A DNA stretch of 64,000 nt, from sequence record NZ_CP015380.1; one strand, 5' to 3'. Positions 6,336 to 42,299 of the stretch are shown piece by piece (within the stretch, counting starts at the first letter, position 1; every line of letters starts with the position of its first letter). The position numbers and the translations under genes were made by a program. The notes below the pieces were generated by a model, which worked only from the letters and a program-made list of their open reading frames with translations, was not told the origin of the DNA and did no database searches. The stretch is from a plasmid.

Positions 6336-6584
6336 GTAAAGCAAATTGTACCCCCTCCTCGGATGGATTGGATGTTGCTCAACAATAAGCTTTGCCAGGG
6401 TGTCCGGTAAACAAACAACGACAAACGCTGCTGTGGCTTCGCCACGGCGGCGCTCTTCATTTCACATTATACGGTCTTAAATCCCTTCACCAATAGTCTT
6501 CTTAATATCTAGATTTACTCTAGTTCTCCTGCTGTTCTTACCAACTTACCTATTTCTCGCTTAGACCCAAAAACAAAGCAAATG

Positions 6585-6845
6585 CCCTTGGGGCACCGAA
6601 GGCGTGCGCCGTTCCGACACACGACGACTGACACAACTAGTCGCGCCTAAACAAACGGGCACGCCAAGTTTTACGCAGCCACAAAAGGTGTCTGCGCCCA
6701 TGCGGGGTAGAGCCGTTGCTGGCAGGTCAACGGCATCGCTTGCTGTGACCTTAAGGTCACGCCGCTGTCACTGCCGGTGATAAAGCCACCGGCGCTAAGG
6801 ACGCCACGTTTTTAACGTGGCGAGTGTGTGCCTGCGCATTTATCG
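6585..6845 (+). promoter_or_regulatory. Frpo/ssi-like structured leading-region element, copy B
   Basis: Second copy of the ~250-bp element, in the same orientation as copy A. It lies ~300 bp upstream of the DUF932-like start of ORF 7128 and is also preceded by a CT-rich tract. Confidence 0.5.
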
Positions 6846-7127
6846 CCTGATTACCCACGCTCATGCGTTCTTTGCGGAGGGCTGGGTTTAGCACCACCCC
6901 CGTTCTAAACACAAAAGAGAATAAATGCCGCAAGCGGCCTTTTGTGTTTAGCCCTGGTCTGTCGCAACAACGCCCATTGCCGCAAGGAACTCATCGAGAG
7001 ATGGCTTAACCATCAGAGTAAGAAAAAATGCAGCTGGCACACACGAAACGTCAACACCGCCGCTGCAGAATCTATCGAAAGATAGGGAAGCCCGCTCAAG
7101 CATTTATTTAAATTTGGAGGTCATACC

Positions 7128-8678
7128 ATGAGACTCGCATCCCGCTTTGGCAATATTAACTCTGTACGTCGCGATCGTCCGTTAACGAATGATGAACTAG
7201 CACAATACGTCCCGAGTGTTTTTTCTGAAGAAAAACATGCGTCCCGTAGTGCGCGATATACCTATATTCCGACTATCACCCTGCTTGATAAATTGCGCGC
7301 TGAAGGATTCCAGCCGTTTTATGCCTGTCAAACCCGTGTACGCGATGAAGATAAGCGCGGTCATACCAAACATCTACTACGTTTGCGTCGTGAAGAAGGG
7401 ATCGCCATTACGGGAAAGGAAGTGCCTGAAATTATTCTGCTCAATAGCCATGATGGTTCGAGCAGTTATCAAATGCTGCCGGGAATGTTCCGATTTGCAT
7501 GCGCCATCCGCTACCTGCACGGCATAGAGCGTAACGGCGAACCCTTCACCATCCGTGACTGGATGCGCGGGGTACGTGAAGATGGCAATAACGGTTGGTT
7601 GTTTATCTCATCGAATGCCGATACTCACGCGTCCCTTAAGCCGGTGATATCGATGTGGCTGTCGTTGGCCATTCGCGGCCTATTGGCGATGGGGGAGAAT
7701 CGTCAGCGCCGCGTTTGGTTTTTTGCCGATGAGATACCAACCCTGCATAAACTGCCGGATTTGGTAGAAATCGTGCCCGAGGCGCGAAAGTTCGGTGGTT
7801 GCTACGTGTTGGGCTTCCAGTCCTACGCCCAGTTGGAAGATATCTATGGCGCCAAAGGCGCTGCCACGCTGTTCGATGTGCTTAATACCCGCGCCTTCTT
7901 CCGCTCGCCGAGTAAGCAGATTGCGGATTTTGCCGCCGGTGAAATCGGTGAAAAAGAGCAGCTCAAAGCTTCCGAGCAATATTCTTACGGTGTCGACCCT
8001 GTGCGTGATGGCACCTCGGTGGGCAAAGACATGGAGCGTGTGACGCTGGTGAGCTACAGCGACATTCAAACCCTGCCCGATTTAACCTGCTATATCACGC
8101 TGCCGGGGCCGTACCCGGCGGTGAAACTGCCGCTGAAGTACCAGACGCGTCCCAAGGTCGCACCGGAATTTATCGCCCGCACTATCGATACCGACGCCGA
8201 GACGCACCTGAGTGCCGTACTGGCCGCTCGTGAGGAAGAAGGACGTGGGATTGCCGAGCTCTTTACCCCTGATGCTGAGACAGCCGAACCCGCCTCGACG
8301 GAAAATGAGCCCGTTGCTGAGACAGCGACTCAAACTCAAACGACACCGCCTGTTACGCCTCTTCGCGAAGAGAGCGCACCGAAGCCAGCACCCAAAACGT
8401 CACCTAAGGCAGCTGCCGCATCGACAACGGCGGCCAGCGCCACCGCAGCGGCGGTGGTTGCACCGGTCGGCGGCGTAGAGCAAGAACTCGAGGAACATGA
8501 AGAGGCGTTACCGCCGGGTATTGATAGCCAAGGCGAACTGGTTGATCCGGATGCTTACGAGCGTTGGCAAGCTGAGCATGAGGCTAACGGCCAGCGCACG
8601 ATGCAACGCCGTGAAGAGGTCAATATCAATCACGGTCAGTCGTCTCTCGATGACGTTGAAGTAGGAGATACATTTTGA
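7128..8678 (+). pseudogene. traD: chimeric ORF: DUF932-like leading-region protein N-terminus fused to the C-terminal part of type IV coupling protein TraD
   Basis: The first ~140 aa ([19 protein letters not shown]...) resemble DUF932 leading-region proteins. From ~7560 the sequence is T4CP-like ([48 protein letters not shown], Walker-B region) and ends in a Pro/Ala/acidic tail like TraD. The N-terminal two-thirds of TraD are missing. Confidence 0.55.
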
Positions 8679-8684
8679 GGGTAA

Positions 8685-9083
8685 CTAGATCCAATCTTCC
8701 AGCCGCAGACCAGAAACACGCTCAAACTCACGTGTATTGTTAGTGACAACGATAAGTCCACAACTCCGAGCATGACCAGCAATCATCAGGTCATAGGGGC
8801 CAATAGGTTTACCAAAGCGCGCTAGCTCAGCCCTAATTTGACCAGAATGTGCGGCTGCATAGCAGTCGTAATTAAGTACGGATAAACGTGCCGTAAAACC
8901 TTCAATGATGGCTAAGTTACGCTCAGGTGCGGTGCTTTTTTCCGCACCATAAATGAGCTCCATTAAAGTCACTGAACTAATACAAAGTTGATGACTGTGG
9001 CAATTGAATTTTTCGCGTACAGACTCCGGTTTATTTTTAATGGTGAAAATACAAATGTTGGTATCAAGCATGTATTTGAGCAT
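8685..9083 (-). CDS. vapC: PIN-domain toxin VapC
   Basis: The 132-aa protein MLKYMLDTNICIF...VTNNTREFERV has PIN-domain acidic residues. Its ATGA overlaps vapB. Confidence 0.85.
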   Translation of the reverse strand: MLKYMLDTNICIFTIKNKPESVREKFNCHSHQLCISSVTLMELIYGAEKSTAPERNLAIIEGFTARLSVLNYDCYAAAHSGQIRAELARFGKPIGPYDLMIAGHARSCGLIVVTNNTREFERVSGLRLEDWI

Positions 9084-12289: not shown

Positions 12290-13760
12290 GGTACATGCTC
12301 GTAAGCGGCTCTACGACCCGCTAACGCGGAGATACACCCCAACTGCGGCAAAGCCTTGTAGTGGTCACTCCGACCGCATAATGGAACTTCTACGCCGCTT
12401 TTAGTGGGTTTAACTTTGCAGCTATCGTGTTCTGTCAAAAAAAGTCGCTTCTAATTTAGACATACAGCCCCCTAAGCGCTGCCAGCAAGCTGCCAGCACT
12501 AAGTCCCCGATACATCGCGGCTACGCCGCGCTAACGGGGTTAAAAGGACTTAAATCAGCATTTTTATCGCTGTAAGTCTGCATGGCTCTTCAGGGCGGGA
12601 GGGGTATAAGGATCTTTTATGATCCTACTCCGGCTTACGCCGGGCTTCGGCGGTTTGACTACAGATTCATATAAAACAACATCATGCCGCCTTACATGCG
12701 CTACGCGCATCTAAAGACAGATATTCAGCATCAAACGGCTTCTGTGTTTTCAAGACCCCATAGCACCAGTGAACAAGCTTGCGCATCAGTGCACCAATAG
12801 CACACATTTTGACCTTGCCACGCTGGCATAAACGCTTATACATCGCCTTCATCATTGGGTTAAATCTCAGACCGCACAACGATGCTAGATACAGTTTTGC
12901 CCTGACTTTCGGTGGCCCAATTTTTGACAATCTCGGTTTCCCTCTGACCGATGTGCCGGAGTTTTTTTCGACAGGAACGACGCCCAGAAAGGCAGCTACC
13001 TGCTCTGCTGTGTCGAAATGATGACTCCGCAGGATAACCAGCATATTCAGTCCTAACTGAAAACCCACGGATTTTATCGATGTCAGCAGGTCAAAATCCT
13101 TCTTTAATTCAGGATGCTGGTCGAAATGGGTCAGGATAAGAGCGTCCAGATGCTCCAGCTCTGCACTCAGATTACGAAGCACATTTTCGATCGATTCAGC
13201 AACAATAGGAGGGATGTCCGTTGCCCTGCATTTTTCCAGTCTGTTTTTTGCGCGGGTACAGTCTGTGACGAATGCATCGCGGCAACGCAGAAGTGCGTTG
13301 AGATAGCGGACATTTTCCGGTTGGTGGTTCCCATGGCTCCGGCTCCTTAAGTGCCCCATAACAGGCCAGCATATAAGCGTCCACTTTGTCATTTTTTGTC
13401 AGAATATCCATGCCGCGGGCAAATTCTCTGCTGCGGTGTGAGTTGCAAGCGATACCTTTGCTCCGGCATTGTGCAGACCGTAAGCCAGCGATTCGTGATA
13501 AACCCCGGTGGCTTCCATGATGATATGAACATCTTCTGGGATGCTGTGCTGCTTATGGAGCCAGTTGATTACAACACTGGCCGCATTGAAATCATTTTTA
13601 AGCTTGCGGGATTTTACCTTGCCTTTAACGCCTTCACGCAGCAGGCACAAATCCAAAGTTTTCTTACTGACATCAATACCTAACTGAAACATAGGTGTAT
13701 TCTCCTCACTGAACCATCACGCCTATTATCCTTGTACATGCAGAGTCATCGCTCTTGGCA
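12290..13760 (-). mobile_element. IS110-family insertion sequence (IS1111-like layout), transposase inactivated
   Basis: The transposase runs in three minus-strand frames. ORF 13399..13692 is the N-terminal DEDD domain (MFQLGIDVSKKTLD...IIMEATGVYH). ORF 13196..13411 carries KNDKVDAYMLACYG. ORF 12682..13392 is the C-terminal part with AKNRLEK. A ~400-bp structured non-coding region lies 3' of the transposase (12290..12680). The boundaries given are approximate. Confidence 0.6.
12682..13692 (-). pseudogene. IS110-family transposase with two frameshifts
   Basis: See the mobile element at 12290..13760. Three overlapping ORFs cover one transposase. Confidence 0.7.
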
Positions 13761-14634: not shown

Positions 14635-14847
14635 AGCTCTGCCGTCAAACGATATGCGTTCGCTTGATGGTTAGGAAATTGGATCCGTTTTTTCCTTTAG
14701 ATCAGAGGTAAAAGAAGGTGATAGGGCCATGAGTTTCATCCGCTCAGGTAGAACCTCCCTAAGCTGCTAATAACCATCGCTTCTTTTCTAGCTGCTGATG
14801 GCGTTCGGCCAGCAAGGGGGCCATTTGGAAAACGGAGCCCATTACTA

Positions 14848-14885
14848 GGGGACTGAAGCCCAACCGTACGAAAACGTACGCTAAG
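14848..14885 (+). repeat. Tn3-family 38-bp terminal inverted repeat (left)
   Basis: Read directly from the sequence. Paired with 19460..19497. Confidence 0.8.
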
Positions 14886-15158
14886 TACGTTTATTGAGCT
14901 AAAACTATCGAGATCCTGTAGCCCCATTTTTTCGCTTTTACTACTGCCGGTTCTGCTTTTCCGGCCTGCAATACCACCAGTTGTTCGTTATGCGCTTTCA
15001 ACGCCATTAATTCACCAGTCATCGTCGCTTTAGATTCCCTTGCCTCAACAGCCTCTTTCAAGGCTTTATCCAGTGCTGTTTTCCTGGCCTTTGCGGGTGG
15101 ACTTAACCTGAAAAAAGTCGTTAAAAATAGTTACCCTTCATTCTTTGATAAAATCTCA

Positions 15159-15953
15159 ATGCTGTCTCTGTATTTGCTTCTGGTGTTTATGGGGGCCACG
15201 GTTGGTGGGATCCCTGATATTAAGGGGCAACTCTCCGTCGCGGGCTTTAATGATCTGATCATTGCGTCAGATACATCGGTGATAACCTTTATTACCCTGG
15301 TCGCTGTAGGCAAGCTGAGTGGAGAAAAACGGCCTCCCCGTAATGCTTCACACCTGCAGAACAGTCTTTCAAATCTGCTGTCAATTTTTCTTCCCACGCT
15401 CTCTCAGTTCATCACGGTGGCGGCCGGCTTTATACTGGGGTTAAAAGGGTTAATGCCCGACCTGTACGCAGACCACATTATCTCTTTGCTTCTGTATCTG
15501 TTGATATTTTCCGTCGCGGTAAAATTATCGTATTCGAATATTAGTATAAAACGCGTGCTGTTAAATAAAACCAACCTGTGGCTAACGTTGGTCACGATAT
15601 TGTCATCATTTATGGGAGCCGCGCTGGCATCATTGTTTATCAACGTACCGCTCCATGAAGTTCTGGCGATCGGATCCGGTTTTGTATGGTATACCCTTTC
15701 TGGAACGCTGTTCACAAAAATGGGCAATCCTCTGTTAGGAACCGTGGCTTTCTTAAGCGAACTGTTTCGCGGGATATCTGCGCTGATGCTCATTCCGCTG
15801 ATTTCGCGGTTCGGTTACAGCACCGCTACCATCGCTATATCCGGTTCAACGGCTCTTGATGTGACGCTGCCGGTTGCGCGACTTATATCCCTTTCTTCTA
15901 TTACCTTTAAAGAGGCCTTTTGGCAGCGGAGAAAGGACAGTAGAAAAACTTAA
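15159..15953 (+). CDS. DUF340/LysO(YbjE)-like inner membrane protein
   Basis: A 264-aa polytopic membrane protein with two homologous halves. The assignment to the LysO family is by overall resemblance only. Confidence 0.4.
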   Translation: MLSLYLLLVFMGATVGGIPDIKGQLSVAGFNDLIIASDTSVITFITLVAVGKLSGEKRPPRNASHLQNSLSNLLSIFLPTLSQFITVAAGFILGLKGLMPDLYADHIISLLLYLLIFSVAVKLSYSNISIKRVLLNKTNLWLTLVTILSSFMGAALASLFINVPLHEVLAIGSGFVWYTLSGTLFTKMGNPLLGTVAFLSELFRGISALMLIPLISRFGYSTATIAISGSTALDVTLPVARLISLSSITFKEAFWQRRKDSRKT

Positions 15954-16110
15954 CCACGGCGATTGACCTGATTTCATCGACTAATGACCTGTGAGCATGT
16001 CACGGCCCATCCCTTCCTCCTCTTATAGTAAAGCTACTCGCAGCCACCCAGCCTGATTATGCTAAACGCAGTAGCTGGGCTTCAAATCTAATGAATCACT
16101 GGAGCAAATA

Positions 16111-16890
16111 ATGAAATTAACGCAAATCCGCAATGCCACTCTCTTGCTGCAATATGCCGGTAAAAAATTCCTTATCGACCCAATGCTCGCAGAAAAGGAA
16201 GCCTGGGATGGTTTTGCCGGAAGTGCCCGCCCGCACCTGCGTAATCCCATGGTTGCCTTGCCTGTGCCTGTAGAAGATTTACTGGCTGTTGATGCCGTTA
16301 TCCTGACCCACACTCATACCGATCATTGGGACGAAGCAGCACAGCAGTCTGTTCCTAAAGACATGCTTATTTATACGCAGGATGAAAAAGATGCGGCGCT
16401 GATCCGTTCTCAGGGCTTTCTTAACGTCCGCGTTCTGAAAGATGAAAATCATTTTGTTGACGGACTGACGATTTATAAAACTGACGGCCAGCACGGCAGT
16501 AACGAACTATACGCCGATACCCAATTGGGTGATTTACTGGGTGACGCATGCGGTCTGGTCTTCACGCATCATGATGAAAAAACGCTTTATATCGCCGGTG
16601 ATACCGTCTGGGTCAAGCCTTATATAAAAAGCCTTCAGCGCTTCAAGCCGGAGATTGTGGTACTCAATACCGGCTATGCGGTCAACGACCTGTACGGTCC
16701 GATCATCATGGGAAAAGAAGATACCTTACGCACACTTAAGATGTTGCCGACTGCGACCATCGTGGCGTCTCACATGGAATCAATCAATCATTGCCTCCTT
16801 ACCCGCGCAGAATTACGCGAGTTCTCACTTGAACATGGCATTGAAGATAAAGTCCTTATTCCTGCAGACGGTGAAACAATGTCTTTCTGA
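16111..16890 (+). CDS. MBL-fold metallo-hydrolase
   Basis: HxHxDH motif in ILTHTHTDHWD, with a later conserved His/Asp (FTHHDE...GD). Confidence 0.7.
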   Translation: MKLTQIRNATLLLQYAGKKFLIDPMLAEKEAWDGFAGSARPHLRNPMVALPVPVEDLLAVDAVILTHTHTDHWDEAAQQSVPKDMLIYTQDEKDAALIRSQGFLNVRVLKDENHFVDGLTIYKTDGQHGSNELYADTQLGDLLGDACGLVFTHHDEKTLYIAGDTVWVKPYIKSLQRFKPEIVVLNTGYAVNDLYGPIIMGKEDTLRTLKMLPTATIVASHMESINHCLLTRAELREFSLEHGIEDKVLIPADGETMSF

Positions 16891-16919
16891 TAAGCCAATA
16901 AGATTTATTTGGGCGAAAA

Positions 16920-17993
16920 ATGTATTCCGACAGGTCACCTGTTATCCTCTGGTCAATCGGAATCAGCAATACTGCCGCCGGTGATCTGGTGGCTCTCCTT
17001 TACGGCAAGGTTAACGTTATGTCTGTATTGACGGTCGCCGTGATTGCCACGGCCGGATTCAGCCCTTTTCACTTTTCAGTCCCCTGTATTATTTTCGGAC
17101 AGTCTATGCCGCAGTCGGATTTATTCCGCGTGGAAATTTGTGCTGAAAAACCGGGCGTCGTCCTGTCAGATATTGGCCTGTCAATCAATGTGAAACATGG
17201 CCTCGAGCTACTTGACGTCGCAGACATTGTTATCGTGCCCTACTGGAATCATCCGGAAGAGCGACCTTCTCAGGCGCTACTTGACAAGCTGATAAGCGCA
17301 TGGCAGCGCGGCGCAGAAGTGGTTGGGCTTTGTCTCGGTGCATACGTGCTGGCCTATTCTGGGTTACTGGATCAGCGCCGGGCGGTAACACACTGGGAGT
17401 TCGAACAGGACTTCGTTGAACGATTTCCAGCCGTTTGTCTGGACAGCAACTCGCTGTATACCAGCGATGAACGCCTTATTACCTCTGCCGGCACCGCCGC
17501 CGGTATTGACTGCTGTCTTAATATTATCCGGGATCATTACGGTTCAGCGGTTGCTAACCGTGTAGCAAGAAGAATGGTGGTTCCTCCTTATCGGGAAGGC
17601 GGCCAGGCACAGTTTATTGAACGCCCGGTCCCTGTATCTACGCGGGACGGAAAAATGAACGAGCTGATGGACTACCTGCGTCGCAATCTGGACAAGCCGC
17701 ACGACCTCGACTCGCTGGCGGGATTTGCCAGCATGAGCAGGCGGACACTTACCCGTCATTTTTTTAAGGCAACCGGGACAACGCTGGGTGGCTGGCTAAA
17801 CGCTGAGCGTCTTCAGAGAAGCCAGGAGCTGCTGGAAACTACGGACAGCAGTATTGAAAACGTGTCTGATATTGCCGGGTTTCAGTCGCCAATCTCTTTC
17901 CGCCAGAGTTTTAAGGCGAAATTCAGCGTCAGCCCAAGCGAATGGCGCCGGGCATTTCGCGGTCCTGTACCAGTTGATCACGGAAAGGCCTGA
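16920..17993 (+). CDS. GlxA-family AraC-type transcriptional regulator (DJ-1/PfpI-like domain + AraC HTH)
   Basis: The N-terminal class-I glutamine amidotransferase-like fold has the nucleophile elbow in GLCLGAYVLA. The C-terminus has the AraC HTH pair (RRTLTRHFFKATGTT...IENVSDIAGFQSPISFRQSFKAKF). The start codon is uncertain; it may be the internal M at ~17022. Confidence 0.7.
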   Translation: MYSDRSPVILWSIGISNTAAGDLVALLYGKVNVMSVLTVAVIATAGFSPFHFSVPCIIFGQSMPQSDLFRVEICAEKPGVVLSDIGLSINVKHGLELLDVADIVIVPYWNHPEERPSQALLDKLISAWQRGAEVVGLCLGAYVLAYSGLLDQRRAVTHWEFEQDFVERFPAVCLDSNSLYTSDERLITSAGTAAGIDCCLNIIRDHYGSAVANRVARRMVVPPYREGGQAQFIERPVPVSTRDGKMNELMDYLRRNLDKPHDLDSLAGFASMSRRTLTRHFFKATGTTLGGWLNAERLQRSQELLETTDSSIENVSDIAGFQSPISFRQSFKAKFSVSPSEWRRAFRGPVPVDHGKA

Positions 17994-18121
17994 GCGGAAG
18001 CTAAGAAATCATAATAATTTTAGAAAACTGGCAGCCTGATACCGGAATAAAAATTTGTTCCTGAAATGAGTGAACTGGCTCATTCTTTAAGGGGGCCGCT
18101 TGGAAAACGAATCTATGGCCA

Positions 18122-19330
18122 CTCCCGTTTTTGCAACACCGATTTTGACAATAAGTTGGCTTGCTTGAATCTATCCGGCGTCTGAATGGGATTTTATTTC
18201 CGCGCCTGATGAACCTCAGAAAATATACGGCTTCAATGAGCCTTTCCGTTTTACAGCTTCCTCAACAGGCCGATAGGCCGTTAGTATCATCAATATTAGT
18301 ATTCGCAAAACCAGATCAGTGATTCTTTAAACCGGTGTATTTCTGCCGTTATGCTACATAAGTTTGCTATCGTGCAGTTAAGGCCTAGGCTATTCTGGCT
18401 AGCTTGTTTGCTAGAGCACAAGTGACGACAAAGTTCCTTTTCCGGCACAGTAAATCCCTGACCCAATCGGCCAATTTTCCAGACTGGTGTTCCAGTTTTT
18501 GTATGAATACCCTGGCACATTGAACCAACAAAGTTCGGATCTTTTTGTTACCTCGCTTACTAATTCCCAGCAATGTCGTCCGACCTCCCGTCGCCAATCT
18601 CAGTTGAAATAGTATTCGCTGTCAGTGTTCCGACGCCGGGAATGCTCAGCAAGCGCTGTCCAATCTCATCTTCGTCCAACTTTCGTTTCAACTGGGATTC
18701 AAAATCTTTAATCTGCTCAATAAGATAGTGATAATGCTGTTATAATTTCAGCAATAACTGGCTGAGGTAAAAAGGCAAACTATTGTCCTCAGTTGGCTAA
18801 TAACGGCAGTTCCTCGGGGGAACGCTAATGCCAAATTCCAGCAGAAAAGCATGCATTTGATTACCTTATCCTGAACCAGGGATTAACGGATAGGGTGCAG
18901 AGCCCGCATTGCCTGCTGAGATTCCGTTCTAGGTTGCACAAAACGCATAGATGGACGCGATGCAGCTTCACAAATAGCTTCGGCGTCGAAAAAGTCGTTT
19001 TTGTTACTTTTAACGAATGGACGGACAAATTGTGGTGATATCAGCTTTGGAAAATGCCCCAATTCTTCCAACTTGCGAGCCATAAAGTGAGAGCCTCCGC
19101 AGGCTTCCATTGCGATGGTTGTAGCAGGGCATGTCGCCAAAAATTCGATTAACCTTGGCCGGGTAAATTTTTTACGGTAAACAGCCTTGCCGCGACGATC
19201 CTAGCAATGAATATGGAAAGAGTTTTTACCCAGATCAATACCAATGAGCGCAATGTTTTCCATGATAGTTCTCCGAATGAAAGCCTGTCCTCAGCACAGT
19301 AGCGGGAAGGAGGGAGTGGCCATCTCATTA
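18122..19330 (-). mobile_element. degenerate IS110-family element, copy 1
   Basis: Minus-strand fragments include MENIALIGIDLGKNSFHIHC-stop (19263..19204) and ...IAMEACGGSHFMARKLEELGH (18883..19140). The C-terminal fragment is ...GISKRGNKKIRTLLVQCARV...ALANKLARIA (18385..18597). Its ends match the copy-2 remnant at 40988..41328. Confidence 0.55.
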
Positions 19331-19459
19331 AATATCCTACTCTAAGGCGATTTCTTAAGCAGACATGACAGGCAGCTCTGAGCGAGGAGCGGACGCTGCC
19401 CGACAGACCTGATGTGCAACTGAGCCGGTTAGAAAGCACCAGTTTGGTTAAAACACATA

Positions 19460-19497
19460 CTTAGCGTACGTTTCCGTACGGTTGGGCTTCAGACCCC
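19460..19497 (-). repeat. Tn3-family 38-bp terminal inverted repeat (right)
   Basis: Read directly from the sequence. TSD TACTA follows at 19498..19502. Confidence 0.8.
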
Positions 19498-20806
19498 TAC
19501 TAGCGTTATTTAAATCGTGAGTCCCAGTTTTTTTCCGATAACTATTGGCCCTTGTTACCATCGTGCAGAAATAACAATAATATCTGAATACTAAAAGAGT
19601 AACTATAAACCTAGAGTTCATAAAAAAGCGACTTGATATGGACGTAGTAATATCAAGTCGCAAATGTTATATACACGTATATAACAATGAGTTTTCACAT
19701 TCTCTGTAGTGCAAGGAAACTATACATAAATCAATACCAGGTTTCCTTAATGAATATTGTTTTATTTATGAAATATTGAAGTAAAAACTTAAAAATAAAA
19801 ATCCAATAACAAACACATAACATTAATAATATATTTGGTTATTTTAACATTAGTAACTCTATGAAAGACTCGATCTTGCCTTAAAAGTTACATATTCCAT
19901 ATTTCACGACTCACACCTCGACAGGACATTTATTTAATTAAATGCTTCTAGCTATTATAAACATAAATACTATTTTTATAAAAACAGGATACAGTAAAGA
20001 TGCGGTAATGTTATTTTTATCTCTGAGGGAAGAGGATTGCATAGGGTTTTACTTATAGCAATTAAATATCTAAGCTTCTAGGAGAGGGGACTATTAAAAG
20101 TGGGTGTCTTTATTTATAATTTATGTAATGAGTTAAGCGCATTATTTAATGTAATTTAAAGTCATTATTTTGTAATGGTTTTTAAATATTATTTCTTTTA
20201 CATGCATTGTATTAACTTAAAACATGAACGAAATTATTTATTGAGCTACGACATCACGAATGCCGTATGGTAATTTGAATCATGATTAAATACTATTGGT
20301 TTATAATCAAACACATTTCTGATAATTAAGTTGAGCGTATTGGTTAAAAATACACTGAGCGTTGATATAGCTAAATCGTATTGTATTCGTAGAAATACTA
20401 TATATATCTAGAACTTATGGATATTTTATTTTTTAAGGTAATATATAATACAATGGTGAGTCGTGTTATCTTATTAATAATAAATCATTACTCTTGGAGT
20501 CTATATGCACCAGGTGAAATTAGATTAGATGACATATGAAATTATCTATCATAATACTAATACACGCGTTATTTTACTTGAGTGTTACTATCAGATTATT
20601 GTGAGTCTACCTAATATAAGGATTTAAAAAATAAGGTTATTTACAATGACTCTGCATCACAAGAGTCATTGTTATTTAAGGTTATCATCACCACTTAGTT
20701 GTATTTTACTTATTTATATCATAATTATATAAAGCAATCCATCAGATGGTTAATTACAAGGATTTTAGTGGGGTTTACTGTGACTAAATATAAGATAAAT
20801 ACTTAT

Positions 20807-26487: not shown

Positions 26488-28192
26488 ATAAATTAATTAA
26501 ATAGCTTATTTTCTAAAAGGTATATTCACGATTTTCTTTTAGCAAGTAGTTTATAGTGGCTACTAATTAACCTATATAGTAGAATTGCATTCAAATTATG
26601 ATTAATATGCGCAAGTGAAATAATAGCTGTGTAAAGTTAACAAAATATCTCATGGAAAAACTATTTCTTATCATTTTTGATGTATGAATAAACAATTTTT
26701 TAGCATGTGTGTTATTTAAGGAGTAAGTGAAACCAAAAATGTATTTTTCTTGGTGTATGGGATCGAGGGACAGTGATGTAAAAAAGCAAGTTATGGAGAT
26801 AACTTATTGTTTGTAATGAAATTAATTGATGTTGACTCTCCATTCAGAATGTCATCCGATAACGAAAACGTATAGTGGTCTAACATATTTATATAACTAT
26901 GTTTAAGCGGGGATAACCTCGCCAGATGTACCTCCTACGGTATTTCACCCCACCGTTCACTATTCTCCAGCCAGAGATCTCGACGGAACAAAGAATCCTG
27001 AAAACGTTCCAGCAGGCACAACGAATAAACCCGCGCGTAGAATCCGGCCATCTCTGCCATAGACTAGGCGTTCTAGGGGCCAGAAGTGATTTGCTCTGGA
27101 ACATCGTCGAGCATGCGTATTTTTGAGCCTTTCAGCTCGGTCAGATAATGGATTATGGACAATGATTGTTGGCCCGCAGGGCCGGCTGAAAGTGTAAGTC
27201 ACGCAACATCGCGGACAAGTGCTGGCAAAATGCCATATCTGATAACCCAGAAAACCTAGTTATGAAGCCTTGATTGGCCAACATGAATGTGGCGCCTAGA
27301 AGCCATATCTTCTCAGAACAATGACCTCGACTGATTAATGCGTTGGTTTGAAGGTGTTTCTGGGGAGAGGCAATGTTAAGCAACATCACCCTAAAAAGGA
27401 CATTATTTGAATATTAGTCTAATGCGACAGAGTACAACGTATGTATTCTAATATCTGAGTAATGAATTTAAGCTATGAATTAGGAGTACTCTCATTTATA
27501 CTACCTATGCTTAATTAAATTGTATCTTAAAAATTATTGAATTAAGTTTAACAAATGTTCATGATTAAATGTTAGATGTATGATATGAAGGCTGAGATAG
27601 AATAGTTTACATTATTTTACAAATGGTTCTTAACGTTAAAATATTCGTTATATATTGTTTTGTTAATGTGTGTTTTTTATTTGTTTTTATGATTTTCTAC
27701 TTTTCAGATAAGATAAAAAATAAACAAATGAAAAACGACTGTAATTAATTTTAAAATTCAGACAAACAAATAGAATATAACTTTCTTTTTTTTACAAAAT
27801 CCTGTTACTTATCTAAAAACAAAAAAAAATAGCATCTTATCCTGTTTTTATCAAATTAATGGCCTGTATATTTGTTTTTTGTTTTTAATCATTATAATAA
27901 GCTAAGCATGTGTCCCTTATGTCTATTGCATATATAGGATCGAGAAAACAATGACAATACTGAGCTATATCCTCCCATGATATAGTGATGCTTCATGCTA
28001 TAAGTATCAGATTGTTTTTCATTACAGAAACTTGCTATAGGGATATATATTTTTATCTATGTTCATACTCTGGTGAGTGTATATGTAAATCGTAACTTCA
28101 ATGTCAAAGAATGGGGCAGATGGTTTTAATTTTAAAATGCATTTTTCTTACTTAATATTCATTATTCTACATTATTAGCTATAGAGTTTTAT

Positions 28193-31100
28193 ATGAAAAA
28201 ATCCCCCCCTCCTTTTACCTCTGAAATAAAAATAGGTAGAAAATATATCCGTGCCATTGCACACCTGAATATCGGTATGCAGGTTGTATTTCCTTTAGTG
28301 ATGTCATTTACCCCAGTGATGGTCGCAAGAGCTGAAACAGAAGACAAAAAATTCCTCACGACCAGCGCCCCAGTGACAACTATTCCCTATGTGTTACAAC
28401 CTGGGGATTCGATTGCTCAGATAGCAGAAAAATTTCACCTCACCGTGGCACAGCTTAAAACGCTGAATCAATATCGAACCTTTGCCCACGGCTTTGAATC
28501 AGTGCGCGCTGGGGATGAGATCGACGTTCCCGTTCAATCCAAAAGCATCGCCACTGATGCTGGCAGTGATGACAGCGCAGCACTGGCTCAGCGTGCCCAG
28601 CAGGCCGGTCACTTTTTACAAAACAATCCCAACAGCGACAGCGCGAAAGATTTGGCGCGCAGCCAAGCGTTGGGTGCAGCGAACAGCAAAGCGAATCAAG
28701 AAGTGGCCAGTTGGCTGAACGGCAAGGGAAAAGCGCGGGTAAAATTGGATGCCGACCGTGATTTCTCACTAAAAAACTCTGAGCTGGATGTGCTGTATCC
28801 GCTGTGGGAAAACAACGCCCATCAGGTGTTTACGCAGGGTTCGGTGCATCATACCGACAGCCGCAACCAGTCCAATCTGGGGTTGGGCTACCGCTATTTT
28901 GAAGGCACCTATTTGCTGGGCGCCAACACCTTCTTTGACCACGACTGGTCACGCAGCCACTCGCGTTTAGGCCTCGGTGCCGAATATCAGCGCGATTTCC
29001 TCAAAGTGGCCGCCAACGCCTACATGCGTCTGACTAACTGGAAAAATTCACCGGACTTCGATAACTACGAAGAACGCCCAGCCAACGGGTGGGACATTCG
29101 TACCGAAGGCTATTTACCTGCCTATCCGGGCATCGGCGGCAAGCTGGTGTATGAACAGTATTACGGCGACCGCGTCGGACTGTTTGGTAAAGATAATCAG
29201 CAAAAAGATCCGGTAGCGGTGACGGCCGGCGTTAACTATTCGCCTTTCCCGCTGATGAAGTTCAACGTCGATCACCGCATGGGTAAAAGCAATCAAAACG
29301 ACACCCGTTTCGGTATCGATCTGAACTATGTGTTTGGTGCGCCGTTAGGTCAGCAGTTGGATAGCAGCCTGTTGGCGGCGAGCCGCAGCTTGGCCGCGAA
29401 TCGTTACGACTTTGTCGAACGTAACAACAACATCGTGTTGGAATACCGCAAAAAAGACACCATCAGCCTCCGGTTGGCCTCGCAAATCAGCGGCTACAGC
29501 GGTGAAAGTAAATCGCTGGGCGTGTCGGTCAACAGCACCAACGGCGTTGAGCGCATTGAGTGGACCGCGCCAGAACTGCTGAGTCAGGGCGGGCAGATTG
29601 TTCAGGTTTCTGAACAGCAGTTCAACGTGATCATTCCTGAATATCAATACGGCAACGATGCCAACAACAGCTATGTGGTGAGCGGCGTTGCCTATGATAA
29701 ATCCGGCAATGCATCGCCAAAAGCGGAAAGCTTAGTGGTTGTTGCCTCGGCTGCGGTGAGTACGGTTAACAGCATGCTAACCCCGATGGAGCTTCAGTTA
29801 CCGAACGACGGTACCTCTACGGCTAAATTGACGCTGGTATTGCGTGATGCGAACAATCATCTCATCAGCGGTGTCGCCGATGACATCAAAACCACACTAA
29901 GTCCCGTGGGTCGCGGCCAGCCAGATGTCACGGTGAGTGCTTTTAGTGAAGACATGACCCGCATGGGCACCTATAACGCCACCGTCACGGCGGGCGAAAA
30001 TATGGGTGAATATAAAATTACGCCTGAAATCCATAATGCCAAACTTGCGTCAGCGACGCTGTATGTCGGCAGAGCACCGGTGATCAGCGGTTTAATCATG
30101 AGCGGCAAGCTGGCGTTAGGCGAGCAGCTATCGGGTCATTATCAGTTCGATAGTAACAGCGGCAATGCACAAGATGCCTCTCTTTACCAATGGGGCAATA
30201 AAGGGCAAACCACAGGGCTGAATGGCGCTGAGACCATCGTTACTTCAGGTAGCGTGCCGGGCTATACGCTGGTCGCCAGCGATGTTGGGCAGGTAAAAGA
30301 GCTGTCGGTTCAGGCGCGTAACGGGGTGGAAACCTTAGGGAATACGCTGACGGTCACTACGGCTCCGGGCGATAGCGGCAACAACACCGAAGGTGGCGGA
30401 GAAGGCGGTGCGATCGTGGATGAAACCGCAGCACCAAGCATCAGCGATGTGACGATAAGCGGTAAGCTTTCGCTAGGTGAAGCGCTGAGCGGTCGTTACA
30501 CCTTTGTGCCGCACACCGGCAACACAACCGATACGTCGGAATACCAGTGGGGCGTGGAAGGCACGACCGCAAGCGTAGTGGATAACGGCGGTGGAAAAGC
30601 GATCACTCAAAGCGGCGTGGTACCAAGCTATACCCTGCAAAGCAGCGATGCGGGTCAGGTGTTGGAAGTTTCTGTGCGGGCTAAAAACGCTGCCGATGTG
30701 TATGGCAACAGCGCCACGGTGACCACCGCACAAACAGGCGGCGGCAACAACACCGAGGGCGGTGGTGAAGGCGGCGTGATTGTTGATGAAACGGCAGCGC
30801 CAAGCATCAGCAGCGTGGCTATCAGCGGCAAGCTGGCGGTTGGCGAAGCACTGAGCGGCAGCTACACCTTTGATGCCAAGACCGGTAACCCAACGGATAC
30901 TTCCGAGTATCAGTGGGGCGCGAAAGGCTCAACCGCAAGCGTAGTGGAAAGCGGTGAAGGCAAAGCAATCAGCCAAAGCGGCGTAGTGCCAAGCTACACC
31001 TTACAAAGCAGCGATGCGGGTCAGGTATTGGAAGTTTCTGTGCGGGCTAAAAACGCTGCCGATGTGTATGGCAACAGCGCGACGGTGACCACCGCACAAA

Positions 31101-40987: not shown

Positions 40988-41328
40988 TCCCGTTTTTGCA
41001 ACACCGAATATGACGATAAGTTGGCTTGCTTGAATCTATCCGGCGTCTGAATGAGATTTAATTCCCACGCTTCGATGAATTCCACGCCTGATAAACCTCC
41101 AGAAAAAGAACCGCCACAGACTTCCATTGCGATGGTTATAGCGGAACATACCACCAAAATTCGATTAACTTTGGCCGGGTAAATTTTTTACGGTAAATAG
41201 CCTTTCCACGACGGTCTTGGCAATGAATCCGGATCCATACCAATGAGCGCAATGTTTTCCATGATAGTTCTCCGAATGAAAGCCTGTCCTCAGCATAGTA
41301 CTGGGAAGGAGGGAGTGACCATCTCATT
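40988..41328 (-). mobile_element. IS110-family remnant, copy 2 (internally deleted: ends only)
   Basis: The end cccgtttttgcaacaccga...gttggcttgcttgaatctatccggcgtctgaatg matches 18123..18200. The segment with the transposase start MENIALIG matches 19200..19330. Confidence 0.5.
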
Positions 41329-41779
41329 AGTATTAATAAACATCGCAAGCCATCTAACCGCATGCGGCTTTGCTGTTTTACTTTGCTATTTGTGAAGGCC
41401 AGAATTTCTTCCAGACAAAAGTATTTCACCTCACGACGGAGTTGTCTCCCGTCTAGCGGCTCATTTAAAACTTCAGTATGATTTTTGGGCTGAGTACACA
41501 TCAAGAGAGGTCACACGCTGGGAGCATCTGGCTGAACTCTACCGCTGTCCGGAATGATCTCCCTTTAACTGGGGGCAGCAAAAAAACTGTATTCGCCACC
41601 TGTATCCCCACGCCATGCGGATAGACAGATTTTTTTACTCGCGGAGGAAATGCTCCCCTGGCTCCACAATAGTAAGGTTATTTTTCCCTCTATTGAGGTG
41701 ATTGAACGAACCCTAGCTGAAGCAACAACGCTTGCCGACAGGGCTGTTTTTTCAGCGCTGACCGCGCAGGGCAGCGGCA

Positions 41780-42186
41780 CCGGACCGTCTGCAGGTATCT
41801 GAGGTGGAACAACCTTCACGGGTGGTTTGACTGCTTCATCCTAGGGGAAAATAAACGGTAAAAATGTTCTGCAACATATCGACCGGCTAAATACGATAGA
41901 GTCGCTGGCACTACCTGACGGTATTGCGCTTTCCGTGCACCAGAATCGGCTCCTGAAACTCGCACGCGAAGGCAGGAAAATGAGTCGTCGGGATCTGGCA
42001 AAATTCACGAATGTTCGCCGTTATGCCTCACTGGTTTGTATCATATTTGAAGCCAGAGCCACATTGACTGACGAAGTTATTGATCTACACGAGCATATTC
42101 TGGGCAGTCTGTTCAGCAGGGCAAAACGCACTCAGGCCGAACGACTCCAGCAAAATGGAAAGCTGATTCAGAGCAAACTGAAATAA
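41780..42186 (+). pseudogene. tnpA: Tn3-family transposase TnpA, N-terminal fragment
   Basis: ...GKINGKNVLQHIDRLNTIESLALPDGIALSVHQNRLLKLAREGRKMSRRDLAKF..RRYASLV..ATLTDEVIDLHEHILGSLFSRAKR matches the conserved TnpA N-terminal (DUF4158) region. It is interrupted upstream and truncated at 42186. Confidence 0.6.
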
Positions 42187-42299
42187 TACGTTACCGTCGG
42201 GCAGGCAATAGGGCTCTGTCGCATTACCGTAGGCAAGTCAGCAAAAGTTACGCTGCCTTTTTTATGCAGCCAACAGATCAAATTGTTCCGCGGGTGATA

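Follow-up and report, generated by a model that had tools for sequence, protein, structure and literature searches.

Among the closest described systems are non-autonomous members of the Tn3 family such as the TIME, TIME-RES and TIME-COMP elements; mobile insertion cassettes are another non-autonomous kind. TIMEs are 50-500 bp long, have two similar IRs and contain no open reading frames, and a TIME-COMP has a whole TIME copy at each of its two ends. Transposition in trans was captured experimentally for TIME-RES and TIME-COMP elements 1.2-3.9 kb in size, which produced 5-bp duplications where they entered AT-rich DNA (Szuplewska et al. 2014, PMC4133298). In TIME-COMPs, differing duplications mark independent events (Gomi & Yano 2026, PMC13367494). 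The element described here resembles these groups in its Tn3-family 38-bp inverted repeats (IRs), the lack of a transposase and a 5-bp duplication in AT-rich DNA; passenger genes and a mosaic make-up are also possible among them. In contrast to TIMEs, it is 4650 bp long and bears genes, and in contrast to TIME-COMPs it is bounded by a single IR at each end with no repeated terminal module. Unlike the cargo-carrying element proposed in an earlier note on this DNA, it can be described as a Tn3-family transposon that is defective and mosaic, with remnants of three other mobile elements in place of its former interior.

The window, i.e. the whole stretch of 64,000 nt that was analysed, belongs to an IncFII-type plasmid (NZ_CP015380.1) with a backbone closest to Hafnia plasmids. 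CcdA and CcdB, identified by Pfam, are encoded just upstream of the element, which begins 208 bp downstream of ccdB, in agreement with the earlier placement after ccdAB. The neighbourhood is full of mobile-element remnants, and an Rfam scan of the whole window returned no families. TnX, TnY and TnZ are used here as working names for three transposon lineages. The features of the locus are as follows.

14816-14835, plus strand: 20-bp motif GGGGGCCATTTGGAAAACGG outside the element, matching the outer half of IR_Y at 18 of 20 positions
14843-14847, no strand: left-hand TACTA of the target-site duplication
14848-14885, plus strand: IR_L, TnX-family terminal inverted repeat of 38 bp, in agreement with the family consensus at 37 of 38 positions
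14886-15078, minus strand: TnX left arm, subterminal motif TACGTTTATTGAGC followed by the tail of a DNA-binding-protein gene
15076-15087, no strand: junction 1, a deletion/recombination joint with imperfect microhomology TTTNCCTGG
15076-15953, plus strand: LysO' (Lys_export), truncated at both ends, called ORF 15159-15953
16111-16890, plus strand: intact MBL-fold hydrolase with 97% amino-acid identity to its counterpart among the TnZ passenger genes
16920-17993, plus strand: GlxA-type AraC regulator (DJ-1_PfpI + HTH_18), intact, 96% amino-acid identity
18091-18110, plus strand: outer part of IR_Y, the Tn21-like 38-bp IR of a third transposon (TnY)
18111-19329, minus strand: decayed IS4321/IS5075-like insertion sequence (IS1111 group), 12-bp subterminal IRs at 18115-18126 and 19312-19323
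19330-19346, plus strand: inner part of IR_Y, AAATATCCTACTCTAAG
19347-19398, plus strand: 52 bp of TnY subterminal sequence, common to Klebsiella plasmid copies
19399-19431, no strand: 33 bp without an assigned source, holding junction 3 (deletion joint)
19432-19459, minus strand: TnX right arm, 28 bp which in complete relatives separate the tnpA stop from the IR
19460-19497, minus strand: IR_R, 38-bp terminal inverted repeat, 37/38 against the family consensus
19498-19502, no strand: right-hand TACTA of the target-site duplication

IR_L reads GGGGACTGAAGCCCAACCGTACGAAAACGTACGCTAAG on the plus strand and IR_R reads GGGGTCTGAAGCCCAACCGTACGGAAACGTACGCTAAG on the minus strand. The two are identical at 36 of 38 positions, start with GGGG and finish with ...ACGCTAAG, as is typical of Tn3-family ends. 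The window contains no further copy of this IR, and shuffled sequences lead to an expectation of 0. Both deviate from the family consensus at one base; the A that IR_L has at position 5 is absent from the 32 other IR copies compared. IR_L is of the left-arm type and IR_R of the right-arm type, they lie in inverted orientation, and about 52 conserved bases survive in each terminal region. The TACTA copies on both sides would agree by chance in about 1 in 1000 cases for 5 bp; duplications around relatives are AGATA, TGCTA and GTTAA. The ends are genuine, because these repeats also delimit complete Tn3-family transposons at other loci. With IRs identical or nearly so to those of autonomous relatives, one end of each arm type and a 5-bp duplication, they result from a single transposition event. 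The two 38-bp IRs, the perfect direct repeats and the bona fide Tn3-family transposition claimed in the earlier note are thereby borne out. Its assignment of the termini to the Tn21/Tn1721 type is not supported: in comparison with reference IRs, the sequence is nearer to Tn1000 and Tn3 (31/38 and 29/38) than to Tn21/Tn1721 (22-23/38). No match to the IR sequence was found in the literature.

A complete TnX of 6364 bp is located on plasmid pJSRIV004_1 of Serratia sp. JSRIV004 (NZ_CP074141.1; locus L004, 703-7066), flanked by AGATA. It contains tnpR, and its TnpA matches NF033527 with 1058 bits. Other copies are found in Salmonella arizonae CCUG 6322T, Pantoea, Photorhabdus and Xenorhabdus, and in many Enterobacterales genomes the same IR adjoins TnpA genes 88-98% identical to that of the Serratia plasmid. 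The layout is IR - variable cargo - res - tnpR - tnpA - IR. TnX is apparently a widespread, unnamed Tn3-family lineage with variable cargo. The window element shares with the autonomous copies the 38-bp IR, bar one base per end, the subterminal motifs, a 5-bp AT-rich duplication and the right arm, which including the IR spans 66 bp and is 95.5% identical to pJSRIV004_1. The autonomous copies, in contrast, possess res, tnpR and a 1002-aa Tn3-family TnpA, all of which the window element lacks. TnX-family transposases are common in plant- and insect-associated Enterobacterales.

The absence of transposition genes, stated in the earlier note, was confirmed. With tblastn, no TnpA was detected inside 14848-19497 using three Tn3-family TnpA queries, and no TnpR was detected in the element using Tn3-family TnpR queries. 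In a BLAST comparison, the element matches its complete relative at the two ends only, so res is missing as well; no res-region homology was found against the complete TnX or the complete TnZ (locus L001). The TnpA and the res/resolvase module of autonomous Tn3-family transposons are thus both lacking. A cognate (TnX) tnpA is found neither in the window nor within 10 kb in relatives. The tnpA fragment noted earlier at 41780-42186 is real. It covers 41331-42210 and is 87% identical to genes annotated as Tn3-family transposases, yet it is degraded and bears no similarity to TnX TnpA. It was rejected as a trans-acting source, as were the non-cognate fragments at 26797-27231.

The interior of the element contains three joints, two of them deletion joints (one with microhomology) and the third a true transposon-end joint. 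On the left, 228 bp of the TnX family remain. The motif TACGTTTATTGAGC is the conserved subterminal sequence of the TnX left arm and is followed by the last 45 codons of a 361-aa 'DNA-binding protein' gene (ORF 14891-15061). This gene is present at full length beside the same IR in the pPrAq plasmids of Pectobacteriaceae, which the left arm matches and whose res-tnpR region is 96% identical to that of pJSRIV004_1. Junction 1 joins the gene tail to codon 10 of LysO.

The LysO-MBL-AraC block is part of the passenger region of TnZ, a different complete Tn3-family transposon with other IRs (9231 bp; Enterobacter sp. JJBC plasmid unnamed4, NZ_CP136939.1; L001, 5615-14845). Relatives of TnZ are found on plasmids of Shigella, Klebsiella, E. 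coli, Pectobacterium and Pantoea. The block has the same gene order and 94-95% nucleotide identity in TnZ, whereas the TnZ IRs are identical to the TnX IRs at 25 of 38 positions and the TnZ TnpA is 64.5% identical to the TnX TnpA. TnZ also has two passenger genes that the window lacks (MFS transporter, isochorismatase), along with a tnpR and a tnpA of its own; of this region the window holds just a fragment, which starts 28 bp inside LysO and runs to 9 bp short of the tnpR stop. In the cargo, Pfam confirmed Lys_export, Lactamase_B_2 and DJ-1_PfpI+HTH_18, the three genes named in the earlier note, but LysO is truncated at both ends and the cargo is not the element's own. In LysO', residues 38-276 of the 310-aa reference are aligned and conserved; lost are the start, 28 bp at the 5' junction and 70 bp through a deletion at 15875/15887. 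The likely start of the AraC regulator is 17019, according to the annotation in relatives. The occurrence of the same cargo elsewhere without these IRs, which the earlier note had regarded as evidence against its reading, is nearly what was found, the cargo residing in TnZ between different IRs.

The TnZ homology ends exactly at the outer end of IR_Y (18088/18089), so this joint is a transposition joint. IR_Y is a third 38-bp Tn3-family IR inside the element that the earlier inventory overlooked. IS4321 and IS5075 (IS1111 group, IS110 family) are described as targeting the 38-bp IRs of the Tn21 family (Partridge & Hall 2003, as summarised in PMC11187229). The insertion in IR_Y has the DEDD transposase, the 12-bp subterminal IRs and the fixed position in a Tn21-type IR that characterise these elements. 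It is 92% identical at the nucleotide level to 1327-bp copies from Klebsiella plasmids, its insertion point and orientation match theirs, and both equal those in loci L003 and L034. Unlike an intact IS of 1327 bp with a 334-aa transposase, the window copy measures 1219 bp, has four deletions (17, 68, 13 and 10 bp) and encodes the transposase in three fragments. The later IS110-like insertion reported in the earlier note is thus present, but it sits in its canonical target, IR_Y, and did not enter the cargo as such. The pair of IR_Y and IR_R (189 bp without the IS) was considered as a TIME and rejected, the two IRs being only 24/38 alike. Altogether, the 4.65 kb nest three Tn3-family lineages and one IR-targeting IS.

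The element occupies one identical site, with the same TACTA and flanks, in all 28 related places, which stem from three exact-protein look-ups (MBL, CcdB and the FUSC neighbour) and in many cases from the same few plasmid records. The check for an empty site (...GGAGCCCATTACTAGCGTTATTT...) in related plasmids, proposed in the earlier note, yielded none: the exact-protein look-ups returned occupied sites only, and a PLSDB query with the joined flanks (distant mode) gave only a 90-bp remnant of an IS91 end. Complete host assemblies with the plasmid are GCA_964063325.1, GCA_964063335.1, GCA_000980975.1, GCA_020515765.1 and GCA_004308165.1. PLSDB contained no full-length copy at a second site, and no less-deleted intermediate was found at the TACTA site. 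In an IR scan of 185k species genomes, the cargo was present at 0 of 24 TnX IR loci.

The favoured reading, with a probability of roughly 55%, is that a complete TnX inserted at this site and afterwards lost its interior there through nested insertion and deletions. The anatomy, the sources of the pieces, the genuine ends and the one shared site are established by the data. In the order of events that we infer, a single replicative transposition of TnX 208 bp downstream of ccdB would have duplicated TACTA, by the ordinary route of cointegrate formation and resolution. The LysO'-MBL-AraC fragment would have been brought in from the TnZ passenger region, and the left end of TnY would have been acquired with its IR already struck by the IS4321/IS5075-like IS at its specific target. 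Nested insertion and deletions would have left the TnX left arm and the last 66 bp, a shell that today cannot move unaided and passes vertically with the plasmid. Decay in place is favoured because every related contig has the same single site with identical flanks, because a cognate tnpA is missing from the window and its surroundings in relatives, and because junction 1 shows microhomology in a neighbourhood that holds mobile-element remnants. It is further favoured by decaying TnX copies elsewhere: L021 keeps only the last 226 tnpA codons, L027 has an internal tnpA deletion, and L015 and L026 contain frameshifts. Against it, the gutting is undated relative to the TACTA event, and assembly in place requires that a TnZ carrying TnY landed inside TnX on this plasmid. 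The clean loss of every transposition gene with the termini kept also resembles a trans-mobilised cassette, and non-autonomous elements of up to 3.9 kb do move in trans (PMC4133298).

In the alternative, which is somewhat less probable but a serious contender, the mosaic was built elsewhere and moved as a 4.65-kb cassette to TACTA by a TnX transposase acting in trans, with host recombination resolving the cointegrate. The retention of both IRs and subterminal motifs, of left- and right-arm types and of a perfect 5-bp duplication is consistent with such a transfer, as is the lack of all transposition genes. Cognate transposases are widespread in Enterobacterales, and the pieces are nearest to different hosts (Pectobacteriaceae; Enterobacter/Shigella/Klebsiella; Klebsiella). 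The captured TIME-RES and TIME-COMP elements provide a precedent. On the other hand, movement of TIME-type elements was proven by capture or by several insertion sites with different duplications, whereas a single site was found among all copies and related contigs here; by the standard applied to TIME-COMPs (PMC13367494), this gives no evidence that the gutted form moved. The transfer also requires one event more than decay in place. Since res is lacking, a simple insertion in trans needs extra host recombination for cointegrate resolution, no cognate tnpA is present in the window, and the position-5 base of IR_L occurs in no other copy.

Mobilisation of the shell in trans is possible, but the earlier note's conclusion that the element must have been mobilised in this way is a non sequitur, as a complete TnX gutted in place gives the same structure. 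Decay in place, following a single ordinary insertion, is no less likely, with one site in 28 related places, no second or empty site and no cognate tnpA nearby. Intact IRs and a target duplication prove past transposition, not movement of the transposase-less form. The element can be regarded as an ordinary transposon fossil; a new kind of mobile cargo carrier is not proven. Movement in trans, if true, would mean that non-autonomous Tn3 derivatives bounded by single IRs can be larger and more varied in composition than described so far, an incremental advance over TIME-RES and TIME-COMP. The res-less shell may still work as a cargo cassette moved in trans by TnX-family transposases, although this is less likely than not. 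Whole passenger blocks of competing Tn3-family transposons would then spread between TnX ends, and these Tn1000-like IRs would evade IS4321-type insertion, which inactivates Tn21-like ends and has struck IR_Y.

That each IR comes from a separate, partial copy of TnX and that the TACTA match is coincidental, as the earlier note had considered, is very improbable: the patchwork interior with its three unrelated joints and the arms that are not contiguous TnX sequence would fit, but the chance of a 5-bp match is ~0.001, one left-arm and one right-arm end lie in inverted orientation, and just two IR copies exist in 64 kb.

The motif GGGGGCCATTTGGAAAACGG lies 7 bp before TACTA, with 2 matches against 0.01 expected. 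Because of this half-IR, a general habit of TnX of inserting beside other Tn3-family IRs was considered and dismissed, a regex search of the 300-bp outer flanks of 34 ends having revealed none. The scan of metagenomes for junction 1 led back to this plasmid, which differed by 2 SNPs over 3071 bp.

The 14848-19497 element is bounded by genuine ends of one Tn3-family transposon, here termed TnX, and its interior is a patchwork from four sources. Its parts are listed below, where TnZ denotes a second Tn3-family transposon and IR_Y the terminal repeat of a third.

14848-14885: IR_L, 38-bp terminal repeat
14886-15078: TnX left arm, including the final 45 codons of a gene for a 361-aa "DNA-binding protein"
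15076-18088: LysO'-MBL-AraC block, fragment of the TnZ passenger region
18089-19398: third transposon end (IR_Y transposon)
18111-19329: IS4321/IS5075-like element, splitting IR_Y
19399-19497: right end, 33 bases without assigned source, then TnX right arm and IR_R
19460-19497: IR_R, 38-bp terminal repeat

IR_L and IR_R lie where an earlier note had placed them, are identical at 36 of 38 positions and are the sole two matches to this repeat within the window, none being expected from shuffled sequences. TACTA directly abuts the outer ends of both, as also claimed; a 5-bp match would arise by chance with a probability of about 0.001. The same IR (TnX consensus GGGGTCTGAAGCCCAACCGTACGAAAACGTACGCTAAG) encloses a complete 6364-bp transposon on plasmid pJSRIV004_1 of Serratia sp. 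JSRIV004, which carries three passenger ORFs, tnpR and a 1002-aa TnpA (NCBIfam "Tn3 family transposase", 1058 bits) and is flanked by the duplication AGATA. The conserved TnX terminus reaches about 14 bp inward beyond the IR. One end of the element has the left-arm form seen at the left ends of the pJSRIV004_1 copy and two further comparison loci (L005 and L027), and the other is of the right-arm, tnpA-side type, with the 28 bp inside IR_R matching the Serratia sequence from the tnpA stop to the IR. From the duplication and the matched arms it follows that both IRs derive from a single TnX transposition event, but not what TnX carried when it inserted. The termini had been described as Tn21/Tn1721-like. 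Against what we take to be the reference repeats, the TnX IR resembles those of Tn1000 (31/38) and Tn3 (29/38) more closely than those of Tn21/Tn1721 (22-23/38).

When one genome per species was scanned, the TnX IR turned up at 24 loci across Enterobacterales, among them Pantoea, Erwinia, Rahnella, Serratia, Yersinia, Xenorhabdus, Photorhabdus and Salmonella arizonae. Many of these have a TnpA beside the IR that is 88-98% identical to the Serratia protein, and two more intact IR pairs are flanked by the duplications TGCTA and GTTAA. Decayed copies, with tnpA truncated, internally deleted or frameshifted, occur elsewhere. TnX genes carry routine annotation in database records, and since a literature search gave no match to the IR sequence, the lineage seems to be unnamed. 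In Rouxiella silvae (NZ_MRWD01000022.1, 1638-4352 of the retrieved locus), a 2.7-kb TnX derivative with an ABC-F ATPase gene retains just the final 226 codons of tnpA. Its insertion site is the 3' end of another Tn3-family tnpA, and the 5-mers on its two sides are unequal (GTGCA vs GCAAA).

The gene whose tail lies in the left arm of the element is found at full length in pPrAq plasmids of Pectobacteriaceae. Strain CE90 has it on pPrAq1, directly inside a TnX IR (37/38), and behind it comes a res-tnpR module that shares 96% identity with that of the Serratia TnX. The adjoining LysO'-MBL-AraC block matches, at 94-95% identity, a block carried by plasmids of Enterobacter, Shigella, Klebsiella, E. 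coli, Pectobacterium and Pantoea. In these relatives it belongs to the passenger region (MFS transporter, isochorismatase, LysO, MBL, AraC) of the complete 9231-bp TnZ. TnZ possesses its own IRs, tnpR and tnpA; the element retains only a fragment of it. Pfam confirms the three cargo ORFs proposed earlier (Lys_export, Lactamase_B_2, DJ-1_PfpI+HTH_18). Owing to the loss of the first 28 bp and a 70-bp deletion, only residues 38-276 of 310 of LysO align (91% identity); MBL (97%) and AraC (96%) are intact.

TnZ homology ends exactly at the outer end of IR_Y, reconstructed as GGGGGCCGCTTGGAAAAC(G)GA + AAATATCCTACTCTAAG, which is 28-29/38 identical to what are presumably the Tn21 IRs. The inserted IS has 12-bp subterminal repeats (ATGGCCACTCCC) and shares its position and orientation within the IR with the 1327-bp copies in Klebsiella plasmids; it is 1219 bp long, with four deletions and a fragmented transposase. 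According to Partridge & Hall 2003, as cited in PMC11187229, the IS4321/IS5075 group targets terminal IRs of Tn21-family transposons.

The three junctions differ in character. At junction 1 (15076-15087) the two parent sequences share imperfect microhomology (TTTNCCTGG), which marks it as a deletion or illegitimate-recombination joint. Junction 2 (18088/18089) adjoins the outer end of IR_Y, 9 bp from the tnpR stop of TnZ, and is therefore a real joint made by transposition of the IR_Y transposon into TnZ. Junction 3 (within 19399-19431), likewise a deletion joint, contacts none of the IR ends.

The absence of TnpA, resolvase and res, claimed previously, holds: neither protein turns up between IR_L and IR_R in a tblastn search with Tn3-family queries for TnpA and resolvase, and BLAST to the complete relative matches the two termini only, so the element is without res. 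A cognate TnX tnpA is also absent near the element.

The location just after CcdA/CcdB (Pfam) was given correctly; in F-like plasmids, resD would normally occupy this position. PLSDB holds no full-length copy of the element. Exact-protein look-ups (MBL hydrolase, CcdB and the FUSC neighbour) gave 81-94 index blocks for each protein. In every contig retrieved (GCA_964063325.1, GCA_964063335.1, GCA_000980975.1, GCA_020515765.1, GCA_004308165.1, ENA and Logan metagenomes) the element has identical flanks and TACTA, in the constant context IncFII repA - (IS110/IS91) - ccdAB - element - FUSC - IS1; in the variant OZ061316.1 its left end is lost to IS66. There, an IS66-family element (6342-8924 of the retrieved locus) has taken the place of the left IR and of the element's ccdAB side, and the left neighborhood consists of a YadA-type adhesin and an EAL-domain gene. 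When metagenomes were scanned for junction 1, the same plasmid came back, differing by 2 SNPs in 3071 bp. Neither an empty site nor a second insertion site was found in PLSDB, the look-up contigs or the metagenome scan. The backbone is nearest to Hafnia plasmids.

Two histories fit the element. The favored one, with a probability of roughly 0.55, is decay in place: a complete TnX would have inserted first and later been gutted by a nested insertion and two deletions. It needs one event fewer, via the normal resolution pathway, and fits the decayed TnX copies elsewhere, the single insertion site, the lack of any cognate tnpA in the vicinity and the mobile-element debris around it. More tentatively, the mosaic may have been assembled elsewhere and then moved by a TnX transposase supplied in trans. 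Both termini are cleanly retained, and TIME-RES and TIME-COMP elements of 1.2-3.9 kb, captured with 5-bp duplications, provide experimental precedent (PMC4133298), but the published mark of independent movement, different duplications at different sites (PMC13367494), is not displayed by the element. Of the earlier proposal of a non-autonomous, trans-mobilized element, the ends, TACTA and the missing functions stand; that it must have moved in trans does not, as in-place decay also fits. Two unrelated ends with a coincidental TACTA are very improbable. The element falls outside the definition of a TIME by size and of TIME-COMP by its lack of flanking TIME copies. The most apt description is a defective single-IR-bounded Tn3-family derivative, and it belongs to the established category of non-autonomous, passenger-carrying, mosaic derivatives of this family.

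Further remnants were noted. The tnpA fragment previously reported near 42 kb is real (41331-42210, with 87% identity to annotated Tn3-family transposase genes) but degraded and non-cognate. It is a 5' part of a tnpA from another Tn3-family lineage and is abutted by a second IS4321-like end fragment (41142-41329, subterminal repeat 41311-41322); the arrangement looks as if this IS family had struck another IR here. On Serratia marcescens pAM01 (7089-7370 of locus L006), sequence 74% identical to the transposase-proximal end of the IS4321-like element begins 15 bp outside a TnX IR. Two short TnpA fragments at 26797-27231 (-), 57-69% identical to TnZ and 34-55% to TnX TnpA, represent a further, distinct Tn3-family remnant. 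Seven bp before TACTA, a 20-bp motif (14816-14835, GGGGGCCATTTGGAAAACGG) is 18/20 identical to the outer half of the Tn21-like IR_Y, a half that coincides exactly with the portion to the left of the IS4321 insertion, and may be a remnant of another such end; the next 18 bp lack IR resemblance. Between ccdB and the element, a 90-bp segment (14664-14755) is 83-90% identical to unannotated sequence just past IS91-family transposase 3' ends in Serratia, Yersinia and Erwinia plasmids, and is probably an IS91-family terminus remnant. The IS110-family element at 12682-13692 (-) is not IS4321-like, and its transposase is split into ORFs of 97 and 236 aa. Some related plasmids have an IS91-family element between or beside its two halves; OZ061321.1 lacks the IS110 element. 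A very AT-rich (GC 27-38%), non-coding 1.3-kb stretch (19503-20806) with several short direct repeats of AAATACTATTTTTAT-like motifs separates the element from the FUSC gene. At 28193-34735, a 2180-aa ORF lies within a GC-rich island (53-59%) flanked by AT-rich DNA. At other places on their backbone, related plasmids have large adhesin genes of the YadA and intimin/invasin types.
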